Shown: positions 1,258 to 52,782, counted from the stretch's first letter. The stretch is 64,000 nt of DNA from an uncultured Gammaproteobacteria bacterium (GCA_964474445.1 CAYYSJ010000007.1:3112-67111), one strand, 5' to 3'. Translations and numbers: made by a program. The notes: generated by a model not told the origin, from the letters alone.

Positions 1258-3072
1258 ATGTCAGCTTCAAACCCGTTACACCACCTTCCCGACCCATTTG
1301 ATGATATTAAAAAAGTGGATATGGGACATTGTTTTAGCGCTAGTAATAGCAATTTGTATGCAAGTGCAGAATTTGGGAGAGATGCAAGGCAACTTGCTGT
1401 TGATGCCCTTATTTTCGATCCCACTATTACCAAACGTGTTGTTATGTCATTGGTAAAACACCAGGCATGGAAACGCAATGATATCACAGAAGCACAACCG
1501 GGGAAATTTCATCATGAACATCGAGAGCTTTTTATTAATGGCCAAAAGATTCCTGAACATTCAGAAAAAATTCTCAGAGAATTATCTGCAAAATGGGGAG
1601 GAACTGATGAAAAAGTTACTTACTATGGAAGTTCTGATATTACTCCTGATGTAGTTAGCCTTATCGCAGAGCTTGCAAAGCAAGACCTTGCTATTTTAAA
1701 GGAAAAAGTTATCAATCACGACAGGAAGAAAAAAATTAGTATTAAAGATAGTGCTCGCCATGGGATTCAGTGGGTCATGGATAGGATTGTCTTTGGTCCA
1801 ACCGTTACGCCACATAATAATATTGTCCAAAAATTCTTGGAGAAAAACCATCTGACGCAATTTGTTCCGACATATCACAATTACGTTTTGCGAAACATTG
1901 ATTGGATGAATCAAAAAATCACCACTGTTGGACAACAGCTTCGACTGCCTCTCTCTCAAAAAAAGAAACGAGTCAAATTACTTGAATTCCAACGTATCAA
2001 TCAACAAGGTATAACGTATCAAGGATGGATGGACGGAGGAACTTCCCTTATCCACTCCTCAAAAGAGATGCAAGGAATTCTTGCAGACTACAGGCAACCG
2101 ATTGCAACCATTGAAATGCAAGGATCTGCAATTGATGCACTTGAAAAAGCTGCATTTCTTTTCCCTAAAAAGGGCAAACATTTTAGAAAATTGGCTGATG
2201 AAGTTCGTGCAAACGTTATCAAACACTTTTGGATGGAAGACAAACAGTTTTTTGCAATGGGAACTGACAGAGAAAACAAAGGAGCACTGAGAAAAATTGA
2301 CACACTCGGAGCAAATGTCGGCGAACTCCTTAACTCTACATTTTTTGATACGATGCTTTTGCATGAAAAACAAAAGTACATCTCAGCAATTTTAACAATG
2401 CTTTTTAGTGATGAATTTCTTACAGACGCAGGTCTTCGTACACGGGCTAAATCTTCTGCTCACCTCACAGACATGTCTGAGAATAAGAATCAACCAAATT
2501 CTCCTTTGGATTATTGGGATTATCAAGGAGCAGAAACATCCTGGATTGTTCAAACAGGAAGAATTGCTGAAGGTCTTCGCATGCAAGGGTTCTACAATTT
2601 GGCGGAGCAATTAGATAACAGAATAGTAAATACCGTCAATCTCTGCAATTTTAATTTGGAATATGTCTATGTTGGAGCAAGAGGACAGTTGGAAAATGTT
2701 GTTGCGTACAAGACAGTTTCAAAGCAAACAATGTATCCACGATCAAAAAATCTTGATGTTGTTACGATCTCTGCAACAAATGTTCCAGAAGCAACGCAAA
2801 CGTGGACTGCATCACGAGTTGCAACAATATTGCATAGGAAAAGCCATCCAGAACTTACTGGACAGACAGAAAAAGAATCTTGGCAGGATAAACTTGAGCA
2901 AACAATCCTTGCTGATTTGAAACAAAAAGGAGCATTTCTTCCGATTTTTGATGCAGAAAAAGTTTTGACACTTCGGGAAACTGCGCCATTATTCGTTGTT
3001 GATCAAGAGAAAGGCAGAAAATTGGAAGAAGACATAAAGGCACATTCTAAAAACTTTTACCTGAATTACTAA
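1258..3072 (+). CDS. Glycogen debranching enzyme-like glycoside hydrolase (amylo-alpha-1,6-glucosidase / GDE_C-type (alpha/alpha)6 barrel)
   Basis: 604-aa ORF. Shares blocks with the 16914..18599 paralog ('KLLEFQRINQQG', 'YPIATIEMQG..DAL', 'HFWMEDKQFFAMGTDREN', 'NSTFFD', 'FLTDAGLRTR', 'DYWDYQG'), the pattern of archaeal/bacterial-type GDE-like hydrolases. Confidence 0.6.
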   Translation: MSASNPLHHLPDPFDDIKKVDMGHCFSASNSNLYASAEFGRDARQLAVDALIFDPTITKRVVMSLVKHQAWKRNDITEAQPGKFHHEHRELFINGQKIPEHSEKILRELSAKWGGTDEKVTYYGSSDITPDVVSLIAELAKQDLAILKEKVINHDRKKKISIKDSARHGIQWVMDRIVFGPTVTPHNNIVQKFLEKNHLTQFVPTYHNYVLRNIDWMNQKITTVGQQLRLPLSQKKKRVKLLEFQRINQQGITYQGWMDGGTSLIHSSKEMQGILADYRQPIATIEMQGSAIDALEKAAFLFPKKGKHFRKLADEVRANVIKHFWMEDKQFFAMGTDRENKGALRKIDTLGANVGELLNSTFFDTMLLHEKQKYISAILTMLFSDEFLTDAGLRTRAKSSAHLTDMSENKNQPNSPLDYWDYQGAETSWIVQTGRIAEGLRMQGFYNLAEQLDNRIVNTVNLCNFNLEYVYVGARGQLENVVAYKTVSKQTMYPRSKNLDVVTISATNVPEATQTWTASRVATILHRKSHPELTGQTEKESWQDKLEQTILADLKQKGAFLPIFDAEKVLTLRETAPLFVVDQEKGRKLEEDIKAHSKNFYLNY

Positions 3073-5695: not shown

Positions 5696-6877
5696 ATGAT
5701 CTATTTAAGCCAACTTCTTAACAAACCAATTTACCAAAATGGCAAGCCTTTTGGAAAAATTGTTGACCTTGCAATCTTTGAGAATAGGCCAAATCCTCCT
5801 GTTTCAAAAGTAGAAATTAAACACGGTACAGAAAAATTGACCGTCTCCCCCCAAGCACTTACGTTGATGAATAATCATATTTCTTTGCCTGCACAACATA
5901 TTCCTATGCTTCCCTATGATCATAAGGATTTCTATCTCGTTGAAGATTTACTCGATAAACAGGTTATTGATACGGATGGGAGAAGATTGGTTCGAGTTAA
6001 TGATGTAATCCTTGAAAAGAACGGAGAATTTAAGGTGGTCGGCATTGATATTGGTTTTGCAGGTGTACTGAGGCGTTTAGGGTTAGGTATGTTTGCACAT
6101 CAAACGACAGTACTTCCCTGGAATGTTATTGAAGCATTTGATTATCAAACAGGAGATGTCAGAATAAAAATAAAACAAAGCAGTCTGAATACCCTCCACC
6201 CTGCTGATCTTGCAAATATTCTTGAGGATGCAGGAACAAAAGAGCGGATAGGAATTGTTGAAGCACTAGATGCAAAGCAAGCGGCAAGAGCCCTGGAAGA
6301 AGCAGATGAGGAGACACAAGTCTCAATTCTTGAAAACCTGAAGCCAGAGACAATAAAAGATGTTGTCAATAAAATGCATATTGCAGAAATCGCAGATGTC
6401 TTCAAAGACCTGAATCCCTCGAAGGCAAAAGAAGTCCAAAACGCATTAGGTACTGAAAGAACCCAAAAAGTGACTAAATTGCTCTCGTTCTCAGATGATG
6501 TTGCGGGAGGAATGATGCACTTAGGTTTTTTCCAAGCAGAAAGTAGTAAGACAGTAAAAGAAGTTATTAAGGAAATGGAAAATCAAGCAAATGTTCCAGA
6601 AACGATTATTGTTACAAATGAAGGCGGAAAAATAGCAGGAGTTATTAACACGAAAGAACTTCTTATCGCAGACAAATTGTCACTACTGGAGGATAATATT
6701 TCTGATAAAAAATTTGTATTCCCGGATACTCCCTTAGACGATATTATTGAGCTTTTTGCACAATACAACCTCCGAGTTGTTCCTGTTGTTGATCAAGAGA
6801 AAAAACCTGTTGGTATTATCCTTATTGATGATATTCTTAAAATAGTTGAAGAGGAAAATAGAAATGAAGACCTTTAA
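5696..6877 (+). CDS. Cytosolic PRC-barrel + MgtE_N + CBS-pair protein (MgtE-type Mg2+ sensor module with no membrane domain)
   Basis: 393 aa. N-terminal PRC-barrel-like region. The central helical block 'LEDAGTKERIGIVEALDAKQAARALEEADEETQVSILENLKPETIKDVVNKMHIAEIADVFKDL' matches the MgtE N-domain pattern. A C-terminal tandem CBS pair follows. The protein ends with no TM helices. Its 3' end overlaps the start of the Nramp-like gene by 32 nt. Confidence 0.7.
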   Translation: MIYLSQLLNKPIYQNGKPFGKIVDLAIFENRPNPPVSKVEIKHGTEKLTVSPQALTLMNNHISLPAQHIPMLPYDHKDFYLVEDLLDKQVIDTDGRRLVRVNDVILEKNGEFKVVGIDIGFAGVLRRLGLGMFAHQTTVLPWNVIEAFDYQTGDVRIKIKQSSLNTLHPADLANILEDAGTKERIGIVEALDAKQAARALEEADEETQVSILENLKPETIKDVVNKMHIAEIADVFKDLNPSKAKEVQNALGTERTQKVTKLLSFSDDVAGGMMHLGFFQAESSKTVKEVIKEMENQANVPETIIVTNEGGKIAGVINTKELLIADKLSLLEDNISDKKFVFPDTPLDDIIELFAQYNLRVVPVVDQEKKPVGIILIDDILKIVEEENRNEDL

Positions 6878-8102
6878 GAACGTATTTATCCGAATTCTTC
6901 CTCTTCTTGCAATCATTGGGCCTGGAATTATTTCCGGATCTGTCGATAATGATGCAGGAGGGATTACAACCTATTCTCTTGCAGGGGCTTCTTTTGGCTA
7001 CACCCAATTATGGGTATTAACAATTACAACGTTTTGTCTGATTATCACTCAAGAAATTGGCGCACGAATGGGACTTGTCACAGGAAAAGGATTGTCTTCA
7101 TTAATCCGTGAAAAATTTGGTGTGCGGTGGACAACATTTATTATGGGAGTTCTTCTTGCTGCAAATATTGGGACAATTGCTGCAGAATTTGCTGGAATTG
7201 CTGCTGCCTTGGAAATATTCCATATCAGCAAATTAATATCTGTTCCTATTGCAGCTGTTATTATTTATGCTCTTATGTTGAAAGGTAATTTTAAAAGACT
7301 AGAGAGAGTTTTTCTTGTCGCTTCCGCATTTTATCTTGTTTATATTGTTTCTGCTGTTCTTGCCAAACCTGATTGGGGTCTTTCTTTTAAAAGCCTTGTT
7401 GTCCCAACAATACAATTAAATAAAGGATATTTCCTTACCATGATTGCTGTTATTGGAACAACGATCACACCATGGGGGCAATTCTTTATTCAGGACTATG
7501 TGGTAGATAAAAAACTGAGTAAAGATGATTTATCTATTGAGCGAGGAGATGTCATGGTTGGCTCAATACTCACCAACGTTATTTCTTACTTTATTATTAT
7601 TGCGTGTGCTGCAACAATTTTTAGTCACGGTTTGGCTATAAATGATGCAAAAGATGCGGCAATTGCTCTTCAACCACTTGCCGGACATCTGGCTAGTTTT
7701 CTTTTTGCTTTTGGACTTTTGAACGCTTCCATTTTCGGTGCTGCATTAGTGCCAATTTCAACGTCCTATGTTGTCAGTGAAGCTTTTGGATTTGAATCAG
7801 GGCTTAATTTTAGTTTTGAAGAAGCACCTCAATTCTATGGATTATTTGCATTTCTACTGATAATGGGAAGTCTACTCGTTATTCTTCCGTTTGTTCCCCT
7901 CTTAACAATTCTTTTTGTTTCACAGGCAATTAATGCAGTTCTTCTTCTCCCAATTCTTATTTTTGTATACATTCTCTCGAACGATAAAAAATTACTTGGA
8001 GTATATGCAAATAATAGGATTGTTAATATTATTGTTTTGATCACCTTTTTTGGAATTGCAATTGCTTCAATTATTTACTTTGCCACACAGTTTATTCATT
8101 AA
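6846..8102 (+). CDS. Nramp-family transporter, NRMT-like (non-canonical metal site)
   Basis: 418 aa, about 11 TM helices. TM1 reads 'GPGIISGSVDNDAGGITTYSLAGASFGY', aligning to Nramp 'GPGFL..IDPGN..AGA' with DPGN replaced by DNDAGG. TM6 reads 'GTTITPW' in place of canonical 'GAxxMPH'. Confidence 0.75.
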   Translation: MKRKIEMKTFKNVFIRILPLLAIIGPGIISGSVDNDAGGITTYSLAGASFGYTQLWVLTITTFCLIITQEIGARMGLVTGKGLSSLIREKFGVRWTTFIMGVLLAANIGTIAAEFAGIAAALEIFHISKLISVPIAAVIIYALMLKGNFKRLERVFLVASAFYLVYIVSAVLAKPDWGLSFKSLVVPTIQLNKGYFLTMIAVIGTTITPWGQFFIQDYVVDKKLSKDDLSIERGDVMVGSILTNVISYFIIIACAATIFSHGLAINDAKDAAIALQPLAGHLASFLFAFGLLNASIFGAALVPISTSYVVSEAFGFESGLNFSFEEAPQFYGLFAFLLIMGSLLVILPFVPLLTILFVSQAINAVLLLPILIFVYILSNDKKLLGVYANNRIVNIIVLITFFGIAIASIIYFATQFIH

Positions 8103-8293: not shown

Positions 8294-10528
8294 ATGCAAA
8301 AACTATCAATTATCATTCCTGTTTTTAATGAAGAGGGAAATATAGAAAAGCTTGTTAAACGAATTGACAAGACATGTAAAGCAGGAAAAATTCTCTATGA
8401 GATTATTTTTGTAGACGATCATTCTACCGATAACACAAGAGAAATAATCAAACTCCTCTCTCCATTCTTCCCTCTTTCACTCCATATGAAACAAAGTAGG
8501 CAAGGTAAATCATATTCGCTTCTTGAAGGATTTTCTTACACAAAGTATGACATCCTCTGCATGATTGATGCCGACTTACAATATGCACCAGAATATATTC
8601 CTGAAATGTTACAAAAAATTTCATTTGCTGATATTGTCATTGCTCATAGGGTAGAACAATCAGTACCTTTGTCTCGAAAACTCCTCAGTAACACACAACA
8701 TCTTCTTTTTAATAAATTGTTACATCATATCGACTATGATGTACAATCAGGACTAAAAATATTTAAAAAGGAAATCATAGAACGTATAACCCTTAATCCG
8801 AAGCCGTGGACATTTGATTTGGAATTCCTATTAAAAGCACAGAATGCAGGATATACAATAATATCCCATGATATTATTTTTCATAAAAGAGTCCATGGTG
8901 TATCAAAAATACATATTCTGAAAGATTCATGGCAGATAGGGCTTGCTGCAATACAATTGCGATTTGCAAAATCTTCTGTTATTCCTTTCGATCCAACAAC
9001 CGCGTTTAAAAACGGAAAAGGATTTCATTACAAGGGACGTACTTTTATTCATCATTCTGAACTTTCTGTTCAGGAGACTGCTTTTTTCCGACTTACTCCT
9101 TCCCAACAGCTCGTCATACTCTTTACTTTCCTTGCCATACTTATGAGTTTTCTTACTGATTGGCATTTCACTATTATTGCATTACTTGCAATACTCACAG
9201 TTTTTTATTTTACTGATCTCTTGTTTAGTTTATTTCTTGTCCTCAGAAATTTTCAAAAACAAACAGAGATTGAGGTGGAGGATACCTATCTTACTTCTCA
9301 CAGAGCATGGCCAATATATACAATATTCTGCCCTTTGTATCAAGAAACCACCGTTATTCCACAATTTGTAGAGGCAATACAAAAACTTGACTATCCAAAA
9401 GACAAATTGCAAGTAATGCTTCTTTTGGAAGAGGATGACCTAGAGACAATCAAAAAAGCTCGTTCTCTTTCTCTCCCATTCTATTTTGAAATTGTTGTTG
9501 TTCCTCACTCGCTCCCTAAAACAAAACCGAAAGCACTTAATTATGGTCTGTCTCTTGCAAAAGGAAATTATGTAGTTATTTTTGATGCTGAAGATATGCC
9601 AGATCCATTACAGCTAAAAAAGGTCGTCGTTGCATTTGAAAAAAGTGACAACGATATCGCCTGTATGCAAGCAAAACTCAATTTTTATAATCCTCATCAA
9701 AATTTATTAACAAGAATATTTACTGCAGAATATTCTTTATGGTTTGATCTAGTACTGACAGGATTACAATCTCTTGAAGCACCTATTCCCTTAGGGGGAA
9801 CATCAAATCATTTCCGAAGACGGGAGTTAAAAAATTTAAAAGGATGGGATTCTTTTAATGTCACTGAAGATTGTGATTTAGGTTTACGGCTTGCTAAACA
9901 AGGATTTAAAACTGCTTTGGTTAACTCAACAACTCTTGAGGAAGCAAACAGTGATATCAAGAATTGGTTTCATCAAAGAGGTCGCTGGATTAAAGGATAT
10001 ATTCAAAGTTATTTTGTTCACATTAGAAATCCAAAAGAGTTTCTCAAACAAGCATCCCTGAAGGACTTTATTTTATTCCAAATTGTTGTTGGGGGCAAAA
10101 TAATGTCATTATTTGTTAACCCTCTTCTCTGGGCAATCACTATTATTTACTTTGCTTTTAGATCACATGTAGGAAATCTTATTGAATCCTTCTTCCCAGC
10201 ACCAGTGTATTATATTGGCACTCTTTCTCTCATTTTTGGAAACTTTCTCTACATGTATTACTACATGATTGCAACAATCAAACGAAGCCATTTTAGCATT
10301 ACAAAATATGCTCTCCTTGTTCCCCTTTATTGGCTCTTCATGAGTATATCCGCCTGGGATGCACTTTATAAGATGATTGTTTCTCCTCATCACTGGGCAA
10401 AAACTGTTCATGGCCTACATCTCAAATCACCTGTTGTTGCACACATGAAAACAGTACAAGAAACGAATACATCATCTCAGAATACTATCCCAAGCTTTCC
10501 TCAAGATATACAACCTGCCTTATCATAA
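8294..10528 (+). CDS. Dual-domain family-2 glycosyltransferase (Dpm1-like polyprenyl-phosphate sugar synthase domain + processive QxxRW synthase domain, membrane-embedded)
   Basis: 744 aa. N-terminal GT2 'IIIPVFNEEGNI...IIFVDDHSTD'. Central TM segments. Second GT2 domain with 'VIFDAEDMPD', 'TEDCDLGLR' and the processive-synthase signature 'QRGRW', followed by C-terminal TM helices. Confidence 0.7.
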   Translation: MQKLSIIIPVFNEEGNIEKLVKRIDKTCKAGKILYEIIFVDDHSTDNTREIIKLLSPFFPLSLHMKQSRQGKSYSLLEGFSYTKYDILCMIDADLQYAPEYIPEMLQKISFADIVIAHRVEQSVPLSRKLLSNTQHLLFNKLLHHIDYDVQSGLKIFKKEIIERITLNPKPWTFDLEFLLKAQNAGYTIISHDIIFHKRVHGVSKIHILKDSWQIGLAAIQLRFAKSSVIPFDPTTAFKNGKGFHYKGRTFIHHSELSVQETAFFRLTPSQQLVILFTFLAILMSFLTDWHFTIIALLAILTVFYFTDLLFSLFLVLRNFQKQTEIEVEDTYLTSHRAWPIYTIFCPLYQETTVIPQFVEAIQKLDYPKDKLQVMLLLEEDDLETIKKARSLSLPFYFEIVVVPHSLPKTKPKALNYGLSLAKGNYVVIFDAEDMPDPLQLKKVVVAFEKSDNDIACMQAKLNFYNPHQNLLTRIFTAEYSLWFDLVLTGLQSLEAPIPLGGTSNHFRRRELKNLKGWDSFNVTEDCDLGLRLAKQGFKTALVNSTTLEEANSDIKNWFHQRGRWIKGYIQSYFVHIRNPKEFLKQASLKDFILFQIVVGGKIMSLFVNPLLWAITIIYFAFRSHVGNLIESFFPAPVYYIGTLSLIFGNFLYMYYYMIATIKRSHFSITKYALLVPLYWLFMSISAWDALYKMIVSPHHWAKTVHGLHLKSPVVAHMKTVQETNTSSQNTIPSFPQDIQPALS

Positions 10529-10534
10529 ATAATC

Positions 10535-12106
10535 ATGAAGAACAAAATATATAAACTATTATTGAAAAGAAAAGAGGAATTCCTTCTTATTTGCATTGCG
10601 TTCATTTTTGCAGTTGCTAGTAGTGTGTTCTTTTTTATCCAAGGCGATATTTTAGCCTATGGAGACGCTGAATCTCATATTAATATTGCTAAGCGTGTCG
10701 TTGACAGCCTCACACCAGGTCTTGCTCAATTGGGTGGTATCTGGCTGCCACTTCCGCATGTTCTGATGTTACCTTTTGTCTATTTTAATATTCTTTGGCG
10801 AACTGGAATTGCAGGATCGATCGTTGGCGGAATATGTTATATAGGCGCAGCTCTCTATTTGTATAAACTTACCTTTTTGTTAACAAAAAATAAAGCTGCT
10901 TCCTTGCTCTCCTTTTTTGTTTTCGTCCTTAATCCAAACGTCTTGTATCTACAATCTACTCCAATGAGTGAATTACCCTTGATTGCATTTTTTGTTCTTT
11001 CAACCTACTACTTTATCCATTTCATTCAGGACGATAAGAGACTTTTTTCACTTATTCTATCTGCATTTTTTGCGTTTTGTGCAAGCTTGTCTCGTTATGA
11101 TGGATGGTTTCTAGTTGGGTTTGAAACCATCGCTCTTTTTCTTTTTTACATCCCTAAAAAACTTTTTCAACAACTAGAAGGGAAAACTGTTTTATTCGTA
11201 ACGCTTGCATTTTTCGGAATAGTCCTTTGGTTACTGTGGGACTTTTTAATTCTTGGTGATCCCTTCTATTTTAGTAATAGTCCATTCTCGGCAAAATCGC
11301 AGCAACAAGCATGGTTTACACGGGGAGAGCTTCCTACCTATAAGCATATGTTTCTCTCATTTGCCTACTATTTTGTAACATCCTTACATAATATTGGTTT
11401 ACTCATTTTCATTCCTACATTAGTGGGATTTATAATTTTTTTATTTCATAAAAAATATTCAAATAAAATCATCATTGTACTACTCCTTACTGTTCCTTTT
11501 ATTTTTTATTGGACGACGCTGTATTTAGGACAATCTGTTATCTTCATTCCAGACTTAACACCAACAACGTTTCATTGGAGGCTATTTAATGTGAGATATG
11601 GTGTTATGATGGTACCGTTTGCTGCGATTTTCTTAGGATATTTATTCACAAAAAAAATACGTCTTTTACAAGGCTTCCTCGTTGTCTGTTTGTTGCTCCA
11701 ATCATTACTTTTCTTTACGGGAAAAGATTCTATCATTTCATTGGAAGACGGAGTTTCTGGTTTATCAGCTGCAAAAAAAGTTGATGCTAGTTTATGGATG
11801 GAGCGTCATTATGATAGAGGTCTTATCCTTTTAGATGATTATGCGAGGACACTCAGTGTTATCAAAAGTGGGCTGCCTATTGAAGACGTTATTTATATCG
11901 GAAATAAACCCTATTGGGAAAATACATTACGAGAACCTGAGAAATATGCAACATGGATTGTTTTGCAAAAAGATGATGCTGTATGGAAAAAACTCTATCA
12001 AGATACAAACCAACGTGGCAGACTATTTAAATACTTCCAAAAAGTGTACACCTCTCCTGAAATTCTTATTTTCAAACGTAATCCTTCCATTGTTGCTTCT
12101 CGCTAA
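10535..12106 (+). CDS. GT-C fold membrane glycosyltransferase (PMT/ArnT-like, GT39/GT83 family)
   Basis: 523 aa polytopic membrane protein with an N-terminal 'YGDAESH' loop motif typical of dolichyl/undecaprenyl-phosphate-sugar dependent GT-C enzymes. The start codon overlaps the upstream GT2 stop region. Confidence 0.6.
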   Translation: MKNKIYKLLLKRKEEFLLICIAFIFAVASSVFFFIQGDILAYGDAESHINIAKRVVDSLTPGLAQLGGIWLPLPHVLMLPFVYFNILWRTGIAGSIVGGICYIGAALYLYKLTFLLTKNKAASLLSFFVFVLNPNVLYLQSTPMSELPLIAFFVLSTYYFIHFIQDDKRLFSLILSAFFAFCASLSRYDGWFLVGFETIALFLFYIPKKLFQQLEGKTVLFVTLAFFGIVLWLLWDFLILGDPFYFSNSPFSAKSQQQAWFTRGELPTYKHMFLSFAYYFVTSLHNIGLLIFIPTLVGFIIFLFHKKYSNKIIIVLLLTVPFIFYWTTLYLGQSVIFIPDLTPTTFHWRLFNVRYGVMMVPFAAIFLGYLFTKKIRLLQGFLVVCLLLQSLLFFTGKDSIISLEDGVSGLSAAKKVDASLWMERHYDRGLILLDDYARTLSVIKSGLPIEDVIYIGNKPYWENTLREPEKYATWIVLQKDDAVWKKLYQDTNQRGRLFKYFQKVYTSPEILIFKRNPSIVASR

Positions 12107-12443: not shown

Positions 12444-13013
12444 ATGAAAAAGTGGATTATTGTCGTAGTATTTTTCATCATTCTATTGATTAGTTCCATT
12501 TTTTATTATAAGTCACAAAAAACTACTTTCTCATTTAACTCACAATTTTCTCCTACACCCATAAAAGAAATCGTTGGCATTCCAATACTCCTCACCATTC
12601 CACGATTTCACATAAGCGTAAAAATAGAATCCGTGGGACTAGATAGTAAAAACAGAATGGATATACCAAAAGATTTTACCAATGTCGCCTGGTATAATTT
12701 GGGGTTTAAACCAGGGGAAAAAGGAAGTGCAGTTATTGATGGACATGTAGATACACCAACAGGAGCACCTGCTGTCTTTGCACAAATTTCTACTCTTCAA
12801 AAAGGTGACATTATTTCAATTCAAGACTCGTCTAGTAAAACACATTCCTTCACTGTAACAAATGTTATTACCTATCCTTATAACCAACTACCTCTTCAAA
12901 CTATTTTTAATAGTATAGATAAACCACGACTTAACTTGATAACATGTGCGGGAATCTGGGATAGCGTGAATAAAAACTATTCAGAAAGAACTGTTGTCTT
13001 TGCAGAAGAGTAA
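12444..13013 (+). CDS. Sortase family transpeptidase
   Basis: 189 aa. N-terminal membrane anchor, catalytic His in 'VIDGHVDT', Cys in 'LNLITCAG' (TLxTC motif), and C-terminal Arg in 'ERTVVFAEE'. Confidence 0.8.
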   Translation: MKKWIIVVVFFIILLISSIFYYKSQKTTFSFNSQFSPTPIKEIVGIPILLTIPRFHISVKIESVGLDSKNRMDIPKDFTNVAWYNLGFKPGEKGSAVIDGHVDTPTGAPAVFAQISTLQKGDIISIQDSSSKTHSFTVTNVITYPYNQLPLQTIFNSIDKPRLNLITCAGIWDSVNKNYSERTVVFAEE

Positions 13014-13020
13014 ACTTATT

Positions 13021-14031
13021 TTATTGTTCTATTGCTACATTGCTTACCACTTTGTTTGTCATATTCTTTTTGAGAACAGTAATCATCATAAGAATTACCA
13101 GGCTTACCAGCACTACGACAAATATTTCTAAAACATAAAACTTCCTTAGTCTTGTTGATTCCAAAAAATCTAATACAATGTAGTGAATAAAAAATAATGA
13201 GTAGGAATTTTTGCTAATGTGCTGTAAAAATTTTTGAATACTTTGAGGAAAAGAGAGCGAAGAAAAGAGTGAACTAAAAAACATCGTACAAACGATTCCA
13301 AATGAAAGATAATATAGCGTTGGTGGATATTTATTATCGTAAAAAAGAAGTGATTTATGAAAAAAGGTATAAAAAATATATATTCCACTAAAAATACCTA
13401 CACAGAAAAGAAAAAGTATTCTTTTATAAACCTCTCTTTGTTTTGAATAATACAAGCCAAGGAGAAAAATTAATGACCAAGGAATCCACATAACATATCG
13501 ATATAAGACATATGGAAAGGTGAAAATTGTAAAGAAACTTGTTATACAAAGAGCAAACAATATGTATAACCAAAGATATTTTACTCTTTGCAAGAAAAAC
13601 AAGAGTGGAGTAAGCACTGTTAATTCAATAAAAATAAGAGGCAGCCAATTCGTATTGGTACCACTAAACAGTGTTAATGACATAAGAAAAAACGTTATGT
13701 TTTTTTGCAGGCCAAAATGGGTGAAAAATCTAGGGAAAACAAAAAAAAGTGAAAAATGAATAACGAAATATACAAGAAATGGTAGGTACAATCGTCCTAA
13801 CCGTTTCTTATACCAAGAATAAATAGCTTGTGTATTCACAAAAGCGCTTTCATAATGAGCGGCTACAAGTCCTGAACAAAAAATAAATGCAACAACAACA
13901 AATTGCAATATATTCCAGAAAAATATAGTGGTTGTACTCGTTAGATGAAATGAAAGTGTATGAATGATCACGACTCCAAGAAGAGAAAAGGCACGAAGAG
14001 TATCAACAAATGCTATTCTATTTTTGTTCAT
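13021..14031 (-). CDS. Acyltransferase family 3 (OafA/YrhL-like membrane O-acyltransferase)
   Basis: 336 aa polytopic membrane protein. N-terminus 'IAFVDTLRAFSLLGVVIIH' is characteristic of the acyltransferase_3 family. Confidence 0.7.
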   Translation of the reverse strand: MNKNRIAFVDTLRAFSLLGVVIIHTLSFHLTSTTTIFFWNILQFVVVAFIFCSGLVAAHYESAFVNTQAIYSWYKKRLGRLYLPFLVYFVIHFSLFFVFPRFFTHFGLQKNITFFLMSLTLFSGTNTNWLPLIFIELTVLTPLLFFLQRVKYLWLYILFALCITSFFTIFTFPYVLYRYVMWIPWSLIFLLGLYYSKQREVYKRILFLFCVGIFSGIYIFYTFFHKSLLFYDNKYPPTLYYLSFGIVCTMFFSSLFSSLSFPQSIQKFLQHISKNSYSLFFIHYIVLDFLESTRLRKFYVLEIFVVVLVSLVILMMITVLKKNMTNKVVSNVAIEQ

Positions 14032-15223
14032 AAAATTTCTTCCCTTTTAGTTTATCAGGAAGAAATGATTTCTGATCAACAGGTCCAACATACTCTTCAC
14101 TCCACGTGTAATTCTTCCCATATCCAATCTCTTTCATAAACTTTGTAGGAGCATTGCGAAGATGAAGTGGGACAGGCTCTATTGGATACGCAAAAACTGC
14201 TTCTTGAGCCTTCCCTAATGCATTTGCAACAGCTCGAGATTTGGGAGCTCGTGCTAAATAAATGGTTATATGAGAAAGAATTAATTTTGCCTCAGGCATG
14301 CCGATTTTGTCAACAGCTTCAAAAGCCGAGTTTGCCTGAATAAGTGCTCCTCTATCTGCCATACCGATATCTTCTGATGCAAAGATAATCATGCGCCGAG
14401 CAATAAATGTCGGATCTTCTCCATTCTCAAGCATTCGGAGTAAATAATATAATGCAGCATCAGTATCAGATCCTCGAAGCGATTTGATGTATGCGCTAAT
14501 CAGGTTGTAATGTTCCTCTCCTTTTTTGTCATATAATGTGTTTGCTCTTTTTTGAAAAATTTCTTCAATAATGTTTTTTGTAATCTCTTTCTCTCTATAC
14601 CCTGTTACAGCAATTTCAAGTCCATTAAGAACAACTCTTCCATCTCCTCCTGCAAAAAGAATAAGGGCACCAATAGCATCTTCTTGGATTGTTTTTTTGT
14701 ATTTGCCTAGACCATACTCACCATTTGTCAGTGCTTTTTGAATCAATTTCTCCAAATCCTTTTTTTCTAGTTGCTGTAAGACAAATACCCGACACCTGGA
14801 CAAAAGAGCACTGTTAATCTCAAAAGAGGGATTTTCAGTTGTTGCCCCAATAAGAGTGATGAGGCCATTTTCAACAAAAGGAAGTAACACATCCTGCTGT
14901 GCTTTATTCCAACGGTGCACTTCATCTATAAATAGTATTGTCTTCTTCCCATCACTTTTGTTCTTTTCTGCCTGCTTTACAATTTGTTTGAGATCTTCTT
15001 TTCCAGCAGTAACACCAGAAAGTTGATAGAATTCTGAATGCGTTGCTTGAGCGATGATGTAGGCAAGCGTTGTTTTTCCAACACCTGGAGGACCCCAGAA
15101 GATCATTGAAAAAAGCTGATCTGATTCAATAAGGCTTCTGATAATTTTCCCTTTACCAACGAGATGCTCTTGGCCAATAAAATCATCAAGCGATTGAGGA
15201 CGCATTCGATATGCTAGATTCAT
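14018..15223 (-). CDS. rarA: Replication-associated recombination protein A (AAA+ ATPase)
   Basis: 401 aa. Walker A 'GPPGVGKTTLA', Walker B 'ILFIDEVHR', MgsA C-terminal helical domain. Confidence 0.9.
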   Translation of the reverse strand: MNLAYRMRPQSLDDFIGQEHLVGKGKIIRSLIESDQLFSMIFWGPPGVGKTTLAYIIAQATHSEFYQLSGVTAGKEDLKQIVKQAEKNKSDGKKTILFIDEVHRWNKAQQDVLLPFVENGLITLIGATTENPSFEINSALLSRCRVFVLQQLEKKDLEKLIQKALTNGEYGLGKYKKTIQEDAIGALILFAGGDGRVVLNGLEIAVTGYREKEITKNIIEEIFQKRANTLYDKKGEEHYNLISAYIKSLRGSDTDAALYYLLRMLENGEDPTFIARRMIIFASEDIGMADRGALIQANSAFEAVDKIGMPEAKLILSHITIYLARAPKSRAVANALGKAQEAVFAYPIEPVPLHLRNAPTKFMKEIGYGKNYTWSEEYVGPVDQKSFLPDKLKGKKFYEQK

Positions 15224-16706
15224 GAAGGTATTGTAACATACCTTGTTGTGATGCAGAATGTTCTAACTCATCTCGTAAGAAATATGCTGCATGGAGGTAT
15301 GATATTTTTTGCTTGTAAGTTGAACATGTCCATCCAAATCCTCCTTGCTTTTTATAGTGGAAAAAATTTTGTCCATTAACACTATTTTCTTCTGTAATAG
15401 TATCTGTTGTTCCAGTTACACCATTGTATTTTTCAGGGAAGTTTTTATCTATTTCAAAAATATTTGTGAGTGTCTCTATAGAATCCTCCATAATTTTGAT
15501 TGCAGTATTCAAGAAAAGCAAACGATCTTCTTTAGGTAAGGTTTCATTAGCGGATGCATCTAATATCCCTTTAATTGCCATAAATTCAATAGGAGGAAAT
15601 ACATATGGAGCATCCCATTGCTTAGGCTTTAGCATTTTTTGAACAGCTTTTAAATTTCTCCTCATAACCCCGATTTCTTCAAATGATTTATTTTCTACAG
15701 GAGGCTGTAGAGATTCTTGCGCATCAACAATAAGCCCGTGCCCTTTATCAAATTTAGGCAAGTGAGCCAACATTCTTTTTAATTGTTCAGGCGTTGCAAG
15801 ACCAGACCATGCAGTAGCAAAAGCTGCAAGTGAATAAAAATCATCACGTTCTTTCTCTACATAATTAAAATCAAAGAAAAATCCTTTCTCGTCATCCCAC
15901 ATTAACTCATTTATTCTTTGTTTTCTCTTTTCTGCTTCCTGATTCCAATATTTTGCTTCCTCTACATTTCCAGTTATTTCAGCAGCCTTAGCAAAATCCA
16001 TTTCGTATTTATAAAGAAAACAGTTGAGATCAATAGGCAGATATTCTTCTGCTCTTCCAGCAAAACGGGATGTAAAATCCCACCCTGATTCTCGCTCAGC
16101 ATTCCAACCATACCCAGTATCTCTATCTCCATAACGAGATAAACCATATTCATCCACATAATGATGATATCTTCCAATGCCTTCTTCACCATCAGATCTA
16201 TTTGTCCAAACTAAAGAATATTCTTTTTTAGCTTCTTCTATTGCAGTCTGTAACCATTCTTTCTCTGCTGGTGTATCTTTATCAGGAATTGCTTGATATG
16301 TTTCCATAATCATTGATGAAAGAAGTGGAGCCTGAGAGCTAATCAGGAACGATTCAAGAGAAGCATTTGGAATAATATGATGATCATCCAATTCTTTACA
16401 GAGTGCTGCAATTGTAGACTTTGCTATATCAATATCATTCGGCGTATTAAGATTACCTTGCATCATAAAGTAACTATCCCAATAGAAAAGCAAAGGGAAT
16501 CTTTCTGTATTAGGAATGCGAAACCGTCTATCACCCAAACCAATTGCGCCTATTTCTGGAATATAGGCAGGCTGAGTACGAACAGTTTTTGCAGTAAATT
16601 CATCTACATAAGCAAGTGCATGTTGAATTCGAGGCGAATGCAAATCAAGCTTAGGGCGCCTTGTTAATTCTCTCCCACTAATTCTTTCTATTACCATAAG
16701 ATACAA
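15186..16706 (-). CDS. Trehalase-like glycoside hydrolase (GH37-type (alpha/alpha)6 barrel)
   Basis: 506 aa. 'LLFYWDSYF' resembles trehalase signature 1 (ExYxWDxY) and 'KQWDAPYVFPP' resembles signature 2 (QWDxPxxWxP). Overlaps the rarA start by 38 nt, so the true start may be internal. Confidence 0.5.
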   Translation of the reverse strand: MYLMVIERISGRELTRRPKLDLHSPRIQHALAYVDEFTAKTVRTQPAYIPEIGAIGLGDRRFRIPNTERFPLLFYWDSYFMMQGNLNTPNDIDIAKSTIAALCKELDDHHIIPNASLESFLISSQAPLLSSMIMETYQAIPDKDTPAEKEWLQTAIEEAKKEYSLVWTNRSDGEEGIGRYHHYVDEYGLSRYGDRDTGYGWNAERESGWDFTSRFAGRAEEYLPIDLNCFLYKYEMDFAKAAEITGNVEEAKYWNQEAEKRKQRINELMWDDEKGFFFDFNYVEKERDDFYSLAAFATAWSGLATPEQLKRMLAHLPKFDKGHGLIVDAQESLQPPVENKSFEEIGVMRRNLKAVQKMLKPKQWDAPYVFPPIEFMAIKGILDASANETLPKEDRLLFLNTAIKIMEDSIETLTNIFEIDKNFPEKYNGVTGTTDTITEENSVNGQNFFHYKKQGGFGWTCSTYKQKISYLHAAYFLRDELEHSASQQGMLQYLHESSISNASSIA

Positions 16707-16913: not shown

Positions 16914-18599
16914 ATGGGTACTGAAATTCGATCACAATTGAAGCAAGTGAGGCAAGATTTACCTCACAATTTTCAGGTGCGTACATTTCCTAATAAGGTA
17001 GGTCTGGTAAATAGATTACGACTTTGGAAAGAGATGTCGCGTGAGATGAGGCATTTTAGAGGTGAGGTGTGGCATAAAGATGAGATATGGGCAAGTAACA
17101 GTGAGAATTATAGTTATGCTTTTTTTGGAAGAGATAGTCTTGAAGCCTCGGAAGATACCCTTCCCTTTGATACCACATTTGCAAGAGACACTATTCGCAA
17201 TTTAAGTAGACTGCAAGGCCGCTCATATAATGCTGTGACAGAAGAAGAACCAGGGAAAATTGTTCATGAATTCAGACAAAAAAGTAATACCCACCCACAA
17301 GCAACGCAGGAAATCTTTCAAAAACTCCATGATATGTGGGGGGAAAAAGGAACAGATTTTGTTAGTTATTACGGTAGTGCAGATGCAACGCCACTCTACA
17401 TACGACTTGTTGCAGATTATTGCCAACAGGTAGGCAATACCAACATTCTTGATGAAATAATAATCCAGAAAGATGGAAAAGAAAAATCAATTAGAGAAGT
17501 CTTATGGAACAGTTTGGAATGGTTACAACGACGCGTTGAAGATGGTCCTCTAGGACCTGATGGATTATCTACTGAGCCTCATCCTGACAAAAGAATAAAA
17601 CTTCTTGAATTTAAGCGAATGAATGAAAAAGGAATCGAAAATCCCATTTGGAAAGATTCTCTTACTTCCGTCATGCACCCAGACGGAACATTAGCAAATC
17701 ATGATTATCCTATTGCAACAATTGAGCTGCAAGGTTTAGCTTATGATGCATTAACAAAGGGAACAGAACTTTTTAAAGAAGACTATACAAAGGCTCAAGC
17801 GAGAGCTGGTATGCTCCTCACTGCCTCTGAGGTTCAACTGAATACGTTGACTCATTTTTGGATGCCTGAGCGGAATTATTTTGCCGTTGGGTTAGATAGA
17901 GACGATAATGGTAATTATAGACAAATACGAACTATAGAATCAAACCCAGCAGAACTTCTGAATACGACATTTTTTGATAAGCTCCCTGAGCATATGAGAC
18001 AACCGTATATCACAGGTATTGTTAATACAATTTATAGTAAGAACTTTTTAACAGACGTTGGAGTTAGATGCAGATCATTAGAATACACAGGTATGATAGA
18101 TTTCTGGGATTATCATGGAGTTCACGCTGTGTGGCCAAAAGAAACATATGATATTGCAAAAGGACTTTTGAAGCAAGGATTTCCTCAATTAGCAGAACAA
18201 CTTTTTTTTCGTATGAGAAACGGTATGAAAGTTGAAAACTCATTTGCCGAATTATTTTACGTTGACGATGATGGTTCTGTAGCTTATAAACCAAAAAAAT
18301 TACTCGACACAAATGCACAACACGGCAAGGTTATTGTCACAACATCTGTTCCTGAAGACAAACAAACATGGTCTTGGAGTGCATACATTGCAAGTGTCCT
18401 TAATAGAAGGATAAAACCAAACATACTATCTTGGCAATATAAACTTGAAGAGCAACTTCTTCTTGCAAATCCGTTAGTAGAACCTCTTTCATTTAGAAAA
18501 GCCAGAGCTCTTATGCGAAGAGCATACGTCATTGATCAGCAAACTGCATTTGATAGAGAAAGAGTGTTCAAAGGAAAACTGAGACGAACTGCAGATTAA
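16914..18599 (+). CDS. Glycogen debranching enzyme-like glycoside hydrolase, paralog of 1258..3072
   Basis: 561 aa sharing collinear motif blocks with the first GDE-like ORF ('KLLEFKRMNEKG', 'YPIATIELQG..DAL', 'HFWMPERNYFAVGLDRDDNG', 'NTTFFD', 'FLTDVGVRCR', 'DFWDYHG'). Confidence 0.6.
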   Translation: MGTEIRSQLKQVRQDLPHNFQVRTFPNKVGLVNRLRLWKEMSREMRHFRGEVWHKDEIWASNSENYSYAFFGRDSLEASEDTLPFDTTFARDTIRNLSRLQGRSYNAVTEEEPGKIVHEFRQKSNTHPQATQEIFQKLHDMWGEKGTDFVSYYGSADATPLYIRLVADYCQQVGNTNILDEIIIQKDGKEKSIREVLWNSLEWLQRRVEDGPLGPDGLSTEPHPDKRIKLLEFKRMNEKGIENPIWKDSLTSVMHPDGTLANHDYPIATIELQGLAYDALTKGTELFKEDYTKAQARAGMLLTASEVQLNTLTHFWMPERNYFAVGLDRDDNGNYRQIRTIESNPAELLNTTFFDKLPEHMRQPYITGIVNTIYSKNFLTDVGVRCRSLEYTGMIDFWDYHGVHAVWPKETYDIAKGLLKQGFPQLAEQLFFRMRNGMKVENSFAELFYVDDDGSVAYKPKKLLDTNAQHGKVIVTTSVPEDKQTWSWSAYIASVLNRRIKPNILSWQYKLEEQLLLANPLVEPLSFRKARALMRRAYVIDQQTAFDRERVFKGKLRRTAD

Positions 18600-19156: not shown

Positions 19157-20203
19157 ATGAGACAGATAAAACCAGTAAACAAAACAGTACGAAAAATTGC
19201 AATTTTTCGGGCTCTTCAATTAGGAGATATGCTTTGCAGTATTCCGTCATTTCGTGCACTCAGAGCATATTATCCGGATACCAAAATTACGCTCATAGGG
19301 CTTCCTTGGGCGAGGGATTTTGCACAAAGATTTCCTCACTATATTAACGAATTTTTTGCATTTCCAGGATATCCCTCTTTGCCGGAAAGAAAATTTAATC
19401 TTGAAGCATTTCCACGATTTTTACAAAAAGTGCAAGACGAACAATTTGATCTCGTTTTTCAAATGCATGGATTAGGTACAATAACGAATCCACTCATCAC
19501 ACTCTTTCATGCAAAACAGTCTGCCGGATTTTATATAAAAAATACCTATTGCCCTAACAAGAAAATGTTTTTTATCTATCCAGAAGAACTCCATGAAACA
19601 CATAAATATTTATTCTTACTTAAACAACTTGGGATTCCCTCTCAAGGGAACTATTTAGAATTTCCTATATCAAAAACCGAAGAGTATCAAACAACAATAC
19701 TCATGCAAACATATGGCATAAAAAAGAAGAAATATATTATGTTGCATCCAGGAGGAAGAGATAAGAAAAGACAAAATGGTGTTACACTCTTCTCTACACT
19801 TGCAAATGTTCTTACTCATCAAGGGTATACTGTTGTTCTGACAGGAACTGCAAACGAACAGACTCTTTGTAAACAAATACTCAAAGAAACCACTTCAAAA
19901 AATATCATTGACCTTTCTGGAAAAACACAGTTAGGCCAACTTGCGTATATCATACAACATGCTTCACTTCTTGTTTCTAACGATACCGGCGCATCTCATC
20001 TTGCTGACGCACTTCATACACCAAGTGTTATTCTTTTTACACCTTACTCAAATCAAAATCGTTGGGCACCCTTAAATACGCAGCTCCATATATCACTCGC
20101 CCCACCCTACTCTCTTGACCAGATACTGAATACTGCAACTGCACTACTTTATCATGATATGGCAAGTCGCGTATCTCCAAGAAAGGAGCACTATGCAAAC
20201 TAA
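19157..20203 (+). CDS. GT9 family glycosyltransferase (ADP-heptose-dependent heptosyltransferase-like), copy 1
   Basis: 348 aa. N-terminal 'KIAIFRALQLGDMLCSIPSFRALRAYYPDTKITLIG' and C-terminal 'SNDTGASHLADAL' are the conserved GT9 (WaaC/WaaF/WaaQ-like) blocks. Confidence 0.75.
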   Translation: MRQIKPVNKTVRKIAIFRALQLGDMLCSIPSFRALRAYYPDTKITLIGLPWARDFAQRFPHYINEFFAFPGYPSLPERKFNLEAFPRFLQKVQDEQFDLVFQMHGLGTITNPLITLFHAKQSAGFYIKNTYCPNKKMFFIYPEELHETHKYLFLLKQLGIPSQGNYLEFPISKTEEYQTTILMQTYGIKKKKYIMLHPGGRDKKRQNGVTLFSTLANVLTHQGYTVVLTGTANEQTLCKQILKETTSKNIIDLSGKTQLGQLAYIIQHASLLVSNDTGASHLADALHTPSVILFTPYSNQNRWAPLNTQLHISLAPPYSLDQILNTATALLYHDMASRVSPRKEHYAN

Positions 20204-23104: not shown

Positions 23105-23112
23105 ACAAACGA

Positions 23113-23835
23113 ATGGAAACGTTGAAAAATAAAATTATTCTTATTACAGGTGCAGGACAAGGACTTGGTGAAGCAACAAGTCGAGTACTAGCAAAAGAGG
23201 GTGCAATTATCCTGGCTGCTGATATTCAATATGAATTAGTTGTTTCACTCATTGAGGATCTTATTGCACAAGGGTATCAAGGTGAAGCGTTTCATCTTGA
23301 CGTAACAAACGATGACTCTATACAAAAAGTGCTTGACACTATTATGAATAGTTATGGACATATCGATGTTTTAATTAATAATGCGGGGATCGATGTAACC
23401 AAGCCTATTGAAGAAATAGCGATTGAAGAATTTGACCACATTCTTTCGGTCAATTTACGAGCACCATTTATATTATCAAAGTCTGTTCTTCCTTTTATGA
23501 AACACTCTGGAGGGAGTATTGTCAATATTATTTCTACAGCAGCAAAACGTGCATGGGTAAATGCTTCTGCTTATCATGCAAGTAAATGGGGATTATTAGG
23601 ACTCTCCTATGCATTACATGTTGAAGGAAGAAAAAAACATATTAGGGTTTCAGCTGTTGTTGCAGGAGGGATGAAGACACCTTTTATTTTAAACCGTTTT
23701 CCTGATACACCGCTTGAGGTGTTACAGAACCCTGAAAGAGTTGCTGAAATCATTAAGTGTGTGCTTTTGGTACCTGAAGAATCAGTCGTCCCTGAAGTAA
23801 TGGTGCTTCCTATGCAAGAAACATCATGGCCATGA
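23113..23835 (+). CDS. Classical short-chain dehydrogenase/reductase (SDR)
   Basis: 240 aa. 'ITGAGQGLGEA' cofactor motif, 'NNAG' motif, catalytic 'YHASKWG' (YxxxK). Confidence 0.8.
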   Translation: METLKNKIILITGAGQGLGEATSRVLAKEGAIILAADIQYELVVSLIEDLIAQGYQGEAFHLDVTNDDSIQKVLDTIMNSYGHIDVLINNAGIDVTKPIEEIAIEEFDHILSVNLRAPFILSKSVLPFMKHSGGSIVNIISTAAKRAWVNASAYHASKWGLLGLSYALHVEGRKKHIRVSAVVAGGMKTPFILNRFPDTPLEVLQNPERVAEIIKCVLLVPEESVVPEVMVLPMQETSWP

Positions 23836-24398: not shown

Positions 24399-24428
24399 CT
24401 ACAATCGATACACCCAATTATATACTGT

Positions 24429-28519: not shown

Positions 28520-28537
28520 GTAAAAAGCCAATATTGC

Positions 28538-52780: not shown

Positions 52781-52782
52781 CT

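Follow-up and report, generated by a model that had tools for sequence, protein, structure and literature searches.

In the 64,000-nucleotide stretch analysed here (GCA_964474445.1 CAYYSJ010000007.1:3112-67111; in the following, the window), two neighbouring genes appear to encode a compact machine for making a decorated polysaccharide. The first specifies a fusion of a predicted donor-type family 2 glycosyltransferase (GT2; domain 1) with a predicted processive membrane synthase (domain 2), and the second a glycosyltransferase of the GT-C fold. We read the pair as a synthase-dependent system with built-in side-chain glycosylation, in which the synthase would export a β-glycan and the GT-C enzyme would add side-chain sugars to it outside the membrane, and we hold the chances for and against this reading to be about balanced. 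A sequence-only reading of the same stretch had already proposed that donor synthesis, polymer synthesis and export, and transfer by the GT-C enzyme form one module, a proposal that conserved synteny and natural gene fusions now support. Judging from the source names of homologues, the window can be assigned to the candidate phyla radiation (CPR, or Patescibacteria). The features of the pair are as follows, with residue numbers (aa) referring to the respective protein.

8294-10528, plus strand: fusion gene, a single open reading frame (ORF) of 744 aa, for a polyprenyl-phosphate glycosyltransferase domain and a processive membrane synthase (activities predicted)
8294-8998, plus strand: domain 1 (aa 1-235), a putative cytoplasmic GT-A domain of the type of dolichyl-phosphate mannose synthase (DPMS), GtrB and ArnC; from a sequence search of the Protein Data Bank (PDB), Foldseek and individual residues
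8567-8575, plus strand: DAD (aa 92-94), the DXD metal/donor motif of domain 1, aligned to 89-DAD-91 of PfDPMS, the enzyme of Pyrococcus furiosus, and invariant in 40 homologues
9098-9256, plus strand: two transmembrane (TM) helices (aa 269-321) that link domain 1 to the synthase and represent the N-terminal TM pair of the latter; AlphaFold helices 269-288 and 290-321, hydropathy
9311-10021, plus strand: GT-A core and interface helix of domain 2 (aa 340-576), a predicted catalytic domain of a processive β-glycan synthase; Pfam PF13641/PF13632, structure matches
9974-9988, plus strand: QRGRW (aa 561-565), the signature of acceptor binding in processive GT2 synthases, with Q561, R562, R564 and W565 invariant
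10058-10381, plus strand: C-terminal membrane helices (aa 589-696), the presumed translocation channel; AlphaFold helices 589-621, 636-663 and 670-696, hydropathy
10385-10423, plus strand: PHHWAKTVHGLHL (aa 698-710), a family-wide C-terminal motif, possibly a gating loop; alignment conservation
10535-12106, plus strand: GT-C gene, for a predicted GT-C fold glycosyltransferase of 523 aa; AlphaFold, Foldseek
10658-10678, plus strand: YGDAESH (aa 42-48), opening the first extracytoplasmic loop, with D44 as presumed catalytic or metal-binding acid; invariance, position after TM1
11093-11107, plus strand: RYDGW (aa 187-191), another conserved motif, located at the external end of a TM helix, invariant in CPR, with R-Y-[DE] mostly kept elsewhere
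11732-12103, plus strand: C-terminal soluble α/β domain of the GT-C protein (aa 400-523), presumably extracytoplasmic and acceptor-binding; AlphaFold secondary structure

The sequence-only reading had described a single protein with two GT-A domains and with TM helices both between and after them. The unbroken ORF, Pfam and the PDB sequence search bear out the former, and AlphaFold and hydropathy the latter (aa 269-321 and aa 589-696); the AlphaFold model was built on 40 homologues and has a mean local confidence (pLDDT) of 84.9. Because hundreds of full-length homologues, 54-75% identical, share the same architecture, an assembly artefact is excluded and the two-domain fusion is a real protein; the concern that its halves might become separate genes after sequence correction thereby falls away. 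Only 6 nt separate its TAA stop codon from the ATG of the GT-C gene, which makes co-transcription of the pair almost certain. In a consensus scan, promoters and terminators were no more frequent than in shuffled sequence.

In fold, DXD motif and residues for the acceptor phosphate, domain 1 agrees with polyprenyl-phosphate glycosyltransferases, whose activity we predict for it. It matches Glycos_transf_2 in Pfam (PF00535; aa 5-163, E 5e-40), and in the PDB sequence search aa 2-206 match the DPMS of P. furiosus (5mlz, E 9e-24), followed by ArnC and GtrB. All three are also found with Foldseek, which superimposes 5mlz over 236 columns with 29% identity and a root-mean-square deviation of 3.2 Å, and a further resemblance exists to AglJ, the initiator of a dolichyl-phosphate-linked glycan. 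With Pfam and hidden Markov model (HMM) searches, no GtrA_DPMS_TM match and hence no C-terminal TM domain of its own was found. Elsewhere, such a domain is GtrA-like in type III DPMS and consists of two TM helices in GtrB and ArnC. The helices that follow domain 1 are assigned to the synthase, since stand-alone synthases of other phyla start just before them. The key residues of PfDPMS are E12, D39, 89-DADLQH-94, R117, R131, S135, F177, K178, R202 and K208, of which R117, R131 and S135 serve the acceptor phosphate and R202 and K208 belong to the A-loop (PMC5526996). Their equivalents in domain 1 are, by alignment, E13, D42, D92-A-D94-L-Q96-Y97, R119, R128, S132, W172/T173, R199 and K205. Apart from Y97 and T173, the residue identities of PfDPMS are kept, and within the family the retained residues show either invariance or a conservation of 90% or more. 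The sequence-only reading had allowed for domain 1 lacking the DXD motif or catalytic residues of Dpm1-type enzymes; instead, DADLQ, R119, R128, S132, R199 and K205 are present.

Domain 2 carries every signature of a processive, membrane-translocating β-glycan synthase, and we predict this activity for it. Pfam places Glyco_tranf_2_3 and Glyco_trans_2_3 at aa 342-632 (E 2e-31 and 3e-22), and the PDB sequence search aligns aa 303-622 with BcsA (E 4e-17). Foldseek matches include BcsA, the hyaluronan synthases (HAS) of a Chlorella virus and of Xenopus, PcManGT and chitin synthase, with those to BcsA and HAS covering about 470-520 alignment columns. DAED (431-434), NVTEDCDLG (TED at 524-526) and QRGRWIKGY (561-569) are invariant; the QxxRW signature that had been noticed in the second GT-A domain is the QRGRW at aa 561-565. 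A C-terminal motif, P[HF]xWxKTxHGL, is conserved in CPR, Chloroflexota, Bacillota, Actinomycetota and a metagenome-assembled genome (MAG) of the Lentisphaeraceae, and its W701, K703, T704, H706 and G707 are invariant in the homologue alignment. It recalls the WGTR motif in the gating loop of hyaluronan and chitin synthases, which may point to a gating role. Domain 2 belongs to no named product family. PgaC_IcaA, CelA and PRK15489 (NfrB) were considered and rejected, as their NCBIfam scores of 101.6, 90.9 and 26 fall short of the cut-offs of 422, 699 and 537, respectively.

The second protein represents a divergent GT-C family that is PMT_2/ArnT-like at the clan level only. Neither alone nor as a 41-sequence profile does it have a match in Pfam (even at E up to 10), NCBIfam or the PDB sequence search. 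Its AlphaFold model, however, is of high quality (pLDDT 89.5, pTM 0.89), and the first 33 Foldseek matches in the PDB are all GT-C proteins, namely STT3, DPY19, ALG12, ArnT, PglB, ALG9, Pmt4 and AftA, with E-values down to 9e-8 and TM-scores of 0.48-0.57 (matches with E <= 0.001). It is because of these structural matches, and because 17 of 41 homologues match PMT_2 (PF13231) and three match PMT (PF02366), that we identify the window protein as a GT-C enzyme. The sequence-only reading had called it a PMT/ArnT-like GT-C enzyme with a YGDAESH motif. The fold has been confirmed in the model and the motif in the sequence, and membership in PMT/GT39 has not: the window protein matches neither PF02366 nor PF13231 at E up to 10, has no MIR match and carries D-A-E in place of DE. 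In structure it comes closest to STT3, DPY19, ALG12 and ArnT, with TM-scores of about 0.55. Of the HMMs suggested at the time, Glycos_transf_2 and Glyco_trans_2_3 do match the fusion protein, and PMT_2 misses the GT-C protein itself and finds only the homologues just mentioned. A strongly basic N-terminus precedes TM1 (aa 13-36), and YGDAESH follows it, with Y42, G43, D44, E46, S47 and H48 invariant in 41 CPR homologues. In other phyla, D44 is kept in nine of 10 aligned relatives (the tenth, L039, did not align there), and E46 is not kept outside CPR. For RYDGW, we infer a role in phosphate or metal binding.

Homologues of both proteins come from Saccharimonadales, Levybacteria, Roizmanbacteria, Gottesmanbacteria and Giovannonibacteria, among others. 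They number in the hundreds, are 54-75% identical and retain 55-60% identity across distant CPR lineages. A search with the GT-C family profile against 1.84 billion cluster representatives returned 3,249 relatives at E <= 0.001, and 1,021 clusters (50% identity) at E <= 1e-30. For synteny, we compiled 80 loci from species-representative genomes and six by exact-protein look-up, and scanned their ORFs with HMMs made from the two fusion halves and from the GT-C protein. The fused form of domains 1 and 2 is common in CPR; split forms also occur, with the two as neighbouring genes in the same (L021) or the reverse order (L024). The GT-C gene lies directly beside the fusion in the window, L001, L004 (two tandem pairs), L035 and L085. 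At many other CPR loci, the two form the opposite ends of one conserved same-strand cluster. This cluster opens with a long form of the fusion, in which domain 1, domain 2, a region of ~450 aa and a GT4 domain share one ORF of up to ~1,620 aa, and continues with GT2s, a CE4 or PIG-L deacetylase, a distant GT-C paralogue of ~510 aa, the GT-C protein and a protein of ~415 aa. The last of these follows the GT-C gene in 19 CPR loci and is homologous to a C-terminal extension that is fused to the GT-C protein in P0241 and P0258; CarboxypepD_reg matches this extension in both, and Glyco_hydro_cc weakly in P0258. The window is a pared-down two-gene version without the extras of the long cluster.

Several features of these CPR clusters stand apart. 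A Saccharimonadales contig carries two tandem pairs of fusion and GT-C genes together with a copy of the long form on the other strand (L004, 8602-16350), and at another CPR locus a short (738 aa) and a long form (1,577 aa, with GT4) are divergently adjacent (L083, 4574-12217); the fusion family has paralogous subtypes inside single genomes. The ~510-aa membrane protein ahead of the GT-C gene (L015, 18144-19679, and equivalents) has no Pfam match in L015, L084 and L086, and ORFs near its position in several loci give weak matches of 22-38 bits to an iterated GT-C HMM. By eye, the same GSRYLIP motif is seen in the N-terminal half of P0281, ahead of a full GT-C protein at aa 542-1034. This ~510-aa protein is probably a second, very divergent GT-C enzyme. 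The ~450-aa region between synthase and GT4 (aa 745-1200 of a 1,568-aa ORF in L015, 12161-13528) is kept in about two dozen CPR loci and gives no match to Pfam or to PDB sequences.

Beyond CPR, Chloroflexota, Actinomycetota, Bacillota and others possess synthases that are related to domain 2 and stand alone (43-51% identity over ~450 aa), and there, too, the synthase keeps company with the GT-C protein. Among 36 non-CPR loci, four have the two fused, 25 have them side by side on one strand and three no more than 1.3 kb apart; the GT-C gene is missing from the remaining four, two of which stop at a contig edge. The four fusions are single ORFs of 958-996 aa in Chloroflexota (L039, L040, L042, L043) and lack the C-terminal soluble domain of the GT-C protein. 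Non-CPR synthases often carry N-terminal MshEN/DUF4388 modules for cyclic di-GMP (c-di-GMP), BcsB-like genes occur in five loci and GGDEF genes in four. An extreme sensor array is seen in a Chloroflexi synthase of 1,293 aa with six MshEN repeats (L057, 7517-11398). In Paenibacillus thalictri, P. tyrfis and Cohnella, synthase and GT-C protein are accompanied by a GtrB-like GT2 and a separate GtrA, and in P. foliorum, Sporolactobacillus and a Chloroflexi MAG by a GT2 resembling type III DPMS (GT-A and GtrA_DPMS_TM); altogether, the GtrA HMM matches in L035, L045, L058, L061, L069, L075 and L078. A donor GT2 and GtrA beside synthase and GT-C protein constitute a classical three-component side-chain system.

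Fusions were sought with HMMs and Pfam among the 150 best GT-C cluster representatives. Thirteen of these are fusions of synthase and GT-C protein, two of which also include domain 1 (P0262, 1,471 aa, and P0296, 1,511 aa). A donor-type GT2 is fused to the GT-C protein in P0252, P0389 and P0351 (the latter with a GtrA-like N-terminus by eye), GH5 to the GT-C protein in P0248 and P0252, and synthase, GT-C protein and GH113 to one another in P0299. Since each pairwise combination of donor GT2, synthase and GT-C protein is thus found as a fusion, there is strong evidence, drawn from gene architecture, that the three act together.

How they might do so can be outlined in a few steps. Domain 2 would polymerise a β-linked chain from a nucleotide sugar and thread it through its own membrane channel. 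Domain 1, anchored to the membrane solely via the synthase helices, would charge an undecaprenyl-type phosphate with one sugar at the cytoplasmic face. The lipid-linked sugar would next be flipped; the window has no GtrA gene, with no match in an HMM search of all 64 kb at E up to 10. For PfDPMS, self-flipping has been discussed as a possibility (PMC12992685). The GT-C enzyme, sitting beside the channel exit, would then move the lipid-linked sugar onto the emerging polymer in a co-translocational manner. In other lineages, the module is enlarged by a flippase or hydrolase, by c-di-GMP sensor domains or by a BcsB-like subunit. The sequence-only reading had envisaged transfer to protein or lipid; the polymer of the synthase itself is the likelier acceptor, because other lineages have fusions of the GT-C protein with the synthase and with polysaccharide hydrolases. 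That GtrA is encoded separately in Paenibacillaceae speaks for a monosaccharide donor that is flipped. Basic residues lie before TM1 of the GT-C protein, both in the window and in fusion linkers, which is consistent with a cytoplasmic location of the synthase C-terminus and the GT-C N-terminus and an outward orientation of D44. The soluble domain of the GT-C protein may hold the polymer, and its loss from the four Chloroflexota fusions with the synthase fits this role.

As to the identity of the polymer, the hydrolases associated with the module are GH26 with CBM35 (L058, L061), GH92 (L058), GH113 (five Chloroflexi-type loci and P0299) and GH5 (four actinobacterial loci and fusions). Resident hydrolases are typical of synthase-dependent systems, as exemplified by BcsZ, PgaB and PslG; in CAZy, GH26 and GH113 are almost exclusively β-mannanases, GH5 includes such enzymes, and GH92 comprises exo-α-mannosidases. 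Together with the closeness of domain 1 to DPMS, the hydrolases of these sister systems suggest a mannan-like polymer with a β-1,4-mannan-type backbone and α-mannosyl branches from polyprenyl-phosphate-mannose. The chemistry is fitting: an inverting GT2 makes a β chain from GDP-α-mannose, and an inverting GT-C enzyme makes an α-mannoside from β-mannosyl-phosphate-polyprenol. For CPR, where the hydrolase-like partners are GH5-like or Glyco_hydro_cc-like, the inference of mannan is weaker.

Four observations weigh against the scheme or its details. H94 and K178, which contact the sugar in PfDPMS, are replaced by tyrosine (Y97) and threonine (T173) in domain 1; the sugar on the lipid may hence be other than mannose. 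The CE4 or PIG-L deacetylases of the CPR clusters hint at N-acetylhexosamine, not mannose. No flippase, hydrolase partner or BcsB-like gene lies within 64 kb in the window and its closest relatives; the window lacks a co-polymerase (BcsB/PgaD), a resident hydrolase or lyase and a c-di-GMP receptor, for which relatives have BcsB-like proteins, GH5/26/113 and MshEN. Finally, many actinobacterial loci combine synthase and GT-C protein in the absence of a neighbouring donor synthase.

The fusion might serve merely to tether domain 1, which is without a TM domain of its own, to the membrane, as in Ppm1 of M. tuberculosis. Two unrelated jobs would then share one anchor: domain 1 and the GT-C enzyme would glycosylate secreted proteins or a membrane lipid in the manner of PMT or ArnT, and domain 2 would make an independent exopolysaccharide. 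The PMT_2 matches of GT-C homologues and the sortase gene downstream of the pair agree with this, as does a fusion of donor GT2 and GT-C protein without a synthase in Southlakia epibionticum. Yet the commonest type of fusion joins synthase and GT-C protein without domain 1, the GT-C protein is also fused to polysaccharide hydrolases and accompanies the synthase in 32 of 36 non-CPR loci, and the sortase beside the pair is not conserved, so that we consider this division of labour unlikely.

The fusion of domain 1 to the synthase could also pass a lipid primer directly from one to the other. Domain 1 would make the primer, the synthase would elongate and translocate the chain on it, and the GT-C enzyme would transfer the whole chain to peptidoglycan, protein or lipid, similar to an oligosaccharyltransferase or ligase. 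No flippase would be needed, in agreement with the GtrA-less window, the best Foldseek matches of the GT-C protein are STT3 oligosaccharyltransferases, domain 1 resembles the glycan starter AglJ, and triple fusions occur. The STT3 scores, however, are like those of ArnT and ALG12 (TM-scores 0.51-0.57), L061, L069 and L078 have GtrA as a gene apart, which speaks for a monosaccharide donor that is flipped, many stand-alone synthases of the family have no adjacent donor synthase, and the characterised BcsA- and HAS-type synthases are not known to need a lipid primer. On balance, a lipid-primed chain seems quite improbable to us. A related idea, to which we give still slighter credence, is a hybrid and fourth route to polysaccharides, in which the fused synthase would elongate and translocate a polyprenyl-phosphate sugar and the GT-C enzyme would ligate the finished chain en bloc to the wall or a surface protein; if it were true, the module would supply the main wall glycopolymer of CPR bacteria.

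That GT-C protein and synthase almost always occur together, also at loci lacking a neighbouring donor synthase, would be expected as well if the GT-C protein were a non-catalytic structural partner, a co-polymerase or channel extension akin to PgaD or BcsB, and E46 and part of RYDGW are indeed not conserved outside CPR. This is very unlikely in view of D44, retained wherever the relatives could be aligned, the highly conserved loop around it, the recurrent links and fusions to donor synthase and GtrA, and the five loci in which a BcsB-like subunit is present alongside the GT-C protein. Lastly, domain 2 as a GT21-like processive synthase of oligoglycosyl-diacylglycerol lipids, with no exported polymer, has a weak Glyco_transf_21 match (E 3e-12) and the generally reduced lipid metabolism of CPR bacteria in its favour, but is hardly credible given the stronger matches to PF13641, PF13632, BcsA and HAS and the BcsB-like subunits, c-di-GMP-type MshEN modules and polysaccharide hydrolases of orthologues in other phyla.

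The preferred scheme, a synthase whose product is glycosylated as it emerges, has counterparts among characterised systems. In the three-component systems (GtrB/GtrA/GtrC, CsbB/GtcA/YfhO, GacI/GacL, ArnC/ArnT and the GT136 system; Kelly et al. 2024, PMC11127046), a GT2 likewise makes a polyprenyl-phosphate monosaccharide and a GT-C enzyme transfers it to a glycan outside the membrane, and the sister clusters of Paenibacillaceae share GtrA with them. Their acceptor, however, is a polymer made by Wzx/Wzy or an ABC transporter, or lipoteichoic acid, whereas here a processive synthase is fused to the donor synthase or the GT-C protein; furthermore, a flippase gene is absent from the window, and domain 1 comes without its own TM domain. 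PfDPMS (5mlz; PMC5526996), the best match of domain 1 in both sequence and structure, differs from it by a GtrA-like four-helix TM domain. With BcsA-BcsB (and BcsZ, BcsG), PgaC and the hyaluronan and chitin synthases, domain 2 has in common the D, DxD, TED and QxxRW motifs and TM helices on both sides of the GT-A domain, and the sister systems resemble Bcs in their BcsB-like subunits, resident hydrolase and c-di-GMP modules. BcsG on BcsA (PDB 9fmv) offers a precedent for a modifying enzyme that depends on a lipid donor and docks on a synthase, the modifier here being a glycosyltransferase, from which a branched product would result. Unlike BcsA, to which domain 2 is ~18% identical, the window protein has no PilZ domain.

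The window GT-C protein shares its fold, a cytoplasmic N-terminus and the acidic residue that opens the first outer loop with ArnT (5f15), STT3/PglB, DPY19, ALG12/ALG9 and PMT. By contrast to these solved GT-C structures, it shows no detectable sequence similarity to them even with the family profile, and it has neither an MIR nor a WWDYG-type domain. NfrB of E. coli, a GT2 exopolysaccharide synthase controlled by c-di-GMP via MshEN (PMC8669469), combines MshEN with a membrane GT2 in the same way as relatives of domain 2 in Paenibacillus and Chloroflexi. The similarity is weak, though (PRK15489, E 2e-6), NfrB carries its MshEN C-terminally and lacks a GT-C partner, and MshEN is absent from the window protein.

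The surroundings of the pair contribute little to this picture. The sequence-only reading had pointed to a nearby sortase, acyltransferase_3 and LCP-type genes as signs of an exopolymer or surface-glycosylation module.

12444-13013: sortase (Sortase F); Pfam/NCBIfam
13021-14031, minus strand: acyltransferase (Acyl_transf_3); Pfam/NCBIfam
44420-45454, minus strand: LCP gene, the only one in the window, 32 kb from the pair

The sortase and the acyltransferase are real, but beside the pair they are conserved only in L001, a relative with 71-75% identity. With synteny restricted to a single close relative and a distance of 32 kb to the LCP gene, the three provide no evidence for the module. Sortase F, Acyl_transf_3 and Nramp were rejected as module parts, their co-occurrence being limited to the close relatives L001 and L002.

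An Nramp gene precedes the fusion gene not only in the window but also in L001 and L002. Divalent-metal transport genes are unusually dense in the 64 kb (6846-8102; 48591-49892 and 50248-51930, both on the minus strand; 5696-6877; 52367-53718). Nramp is present in three paralogues, the first of which is immediately preceded by a gene for a PRC/MgtE_N/CBS protein, and a cation-efflux (CDF) pump occurs together with an ArsR regulator. Near the pair, three large, apparently cytoplasmic proteins are encoded (1258-3072; 15186-16706, minus strand; 16914-18599), one of which is trehalase-like and one weakly MGH1-like, both of glycoside hydrolase type. The 561-aa ORF at 16914-18599 has no Pfam or NCBIfam match, and L001 holds a 32%-identical paralogue and a 65%-identical orthologue of it. 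It was considered as a second GT-C enzyme or as the 'unk511' protein of the CPR clusters, and is similar to neither.

Further downstream, a full ADP-heptose-type cluster extends from 19157 to 29587, in a genome taken as CPR and presumably monoderm. It contains three GT9 heptosyltransferase-like genes (19157-20203, 25906-27000, 28538-29587), an MshA-like GT4 fused to a GmhA/SIS isomerase (21200-23104), a GmhB-like HAD phosphatase (23826-24398) and an HldE-like PfkB kinase and cytidylyltransferase (24429-25913), as well as a GT4, an SDR, a GT2 and an FNR-like reductase. Finally, a 1,314-aa ORF (37543-41487, minus strand), which has no Pfam match and adjoins a LytR_C-domain protein, falls within the one stretch of the window with a raised GC content (0.44 vs ~0.36) and may encode a surface protein.

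The finding is best described as a combination of two known kinds of system that is widespread, uncharacterised and experimentally tractable. In the searchable literature, we came upon no account of coupling between a synthase and a GT-C enzyme. To our knowledge, synthase-dependent polysaccharides such as cellulose, poly-N-acetylglucosamine, alginate and hyaluronan are linear and only acetylated, deacetylated, epimerised or modified with phosphoethanolamine, and glycosyl branching outside the membrane is known to us only for Wzy- or ABC-dependent glycans and teichoic acids. If our reading is true, a synthase hard-wired to a GT-C enzyme and a lipid-sugar donor synthase would show how branches can be put on the chain of a synthase during its emergence. 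Some of the fusions, at 1,100-1,500 aa, unite two of these predicted activities or all three in one polypeptide and are ready objects for electron cryomicroscopy and in vitro reconstitution.

For the biology of CPR bacteria, transposon sequencing of S. epibionticum, a cultivated Saccharibacterium and the source of the only CPR data set of this kind, is of interest: the BcsA-fold GT2 SEML1_0125 and the GT39-like GT-C protein SEML1_0400 are scored as essential, and SEML1_0793, a DPMS-like fusion of donor GT2 and GT-C protein, as non-essential (PMC10633639). These three proteins may be relatives of the module. The 'EPS machinery' of the same organism, SEML1_0081-0083 (Wang et al. 2023), is not its equivalent, being a Wzx/Wzy-type cluster instead. 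A conservation of 55-60% across CPR looks high for exopolysaccharide genes, and suggests that the module is a core component of the cell envelope in these bacteria.

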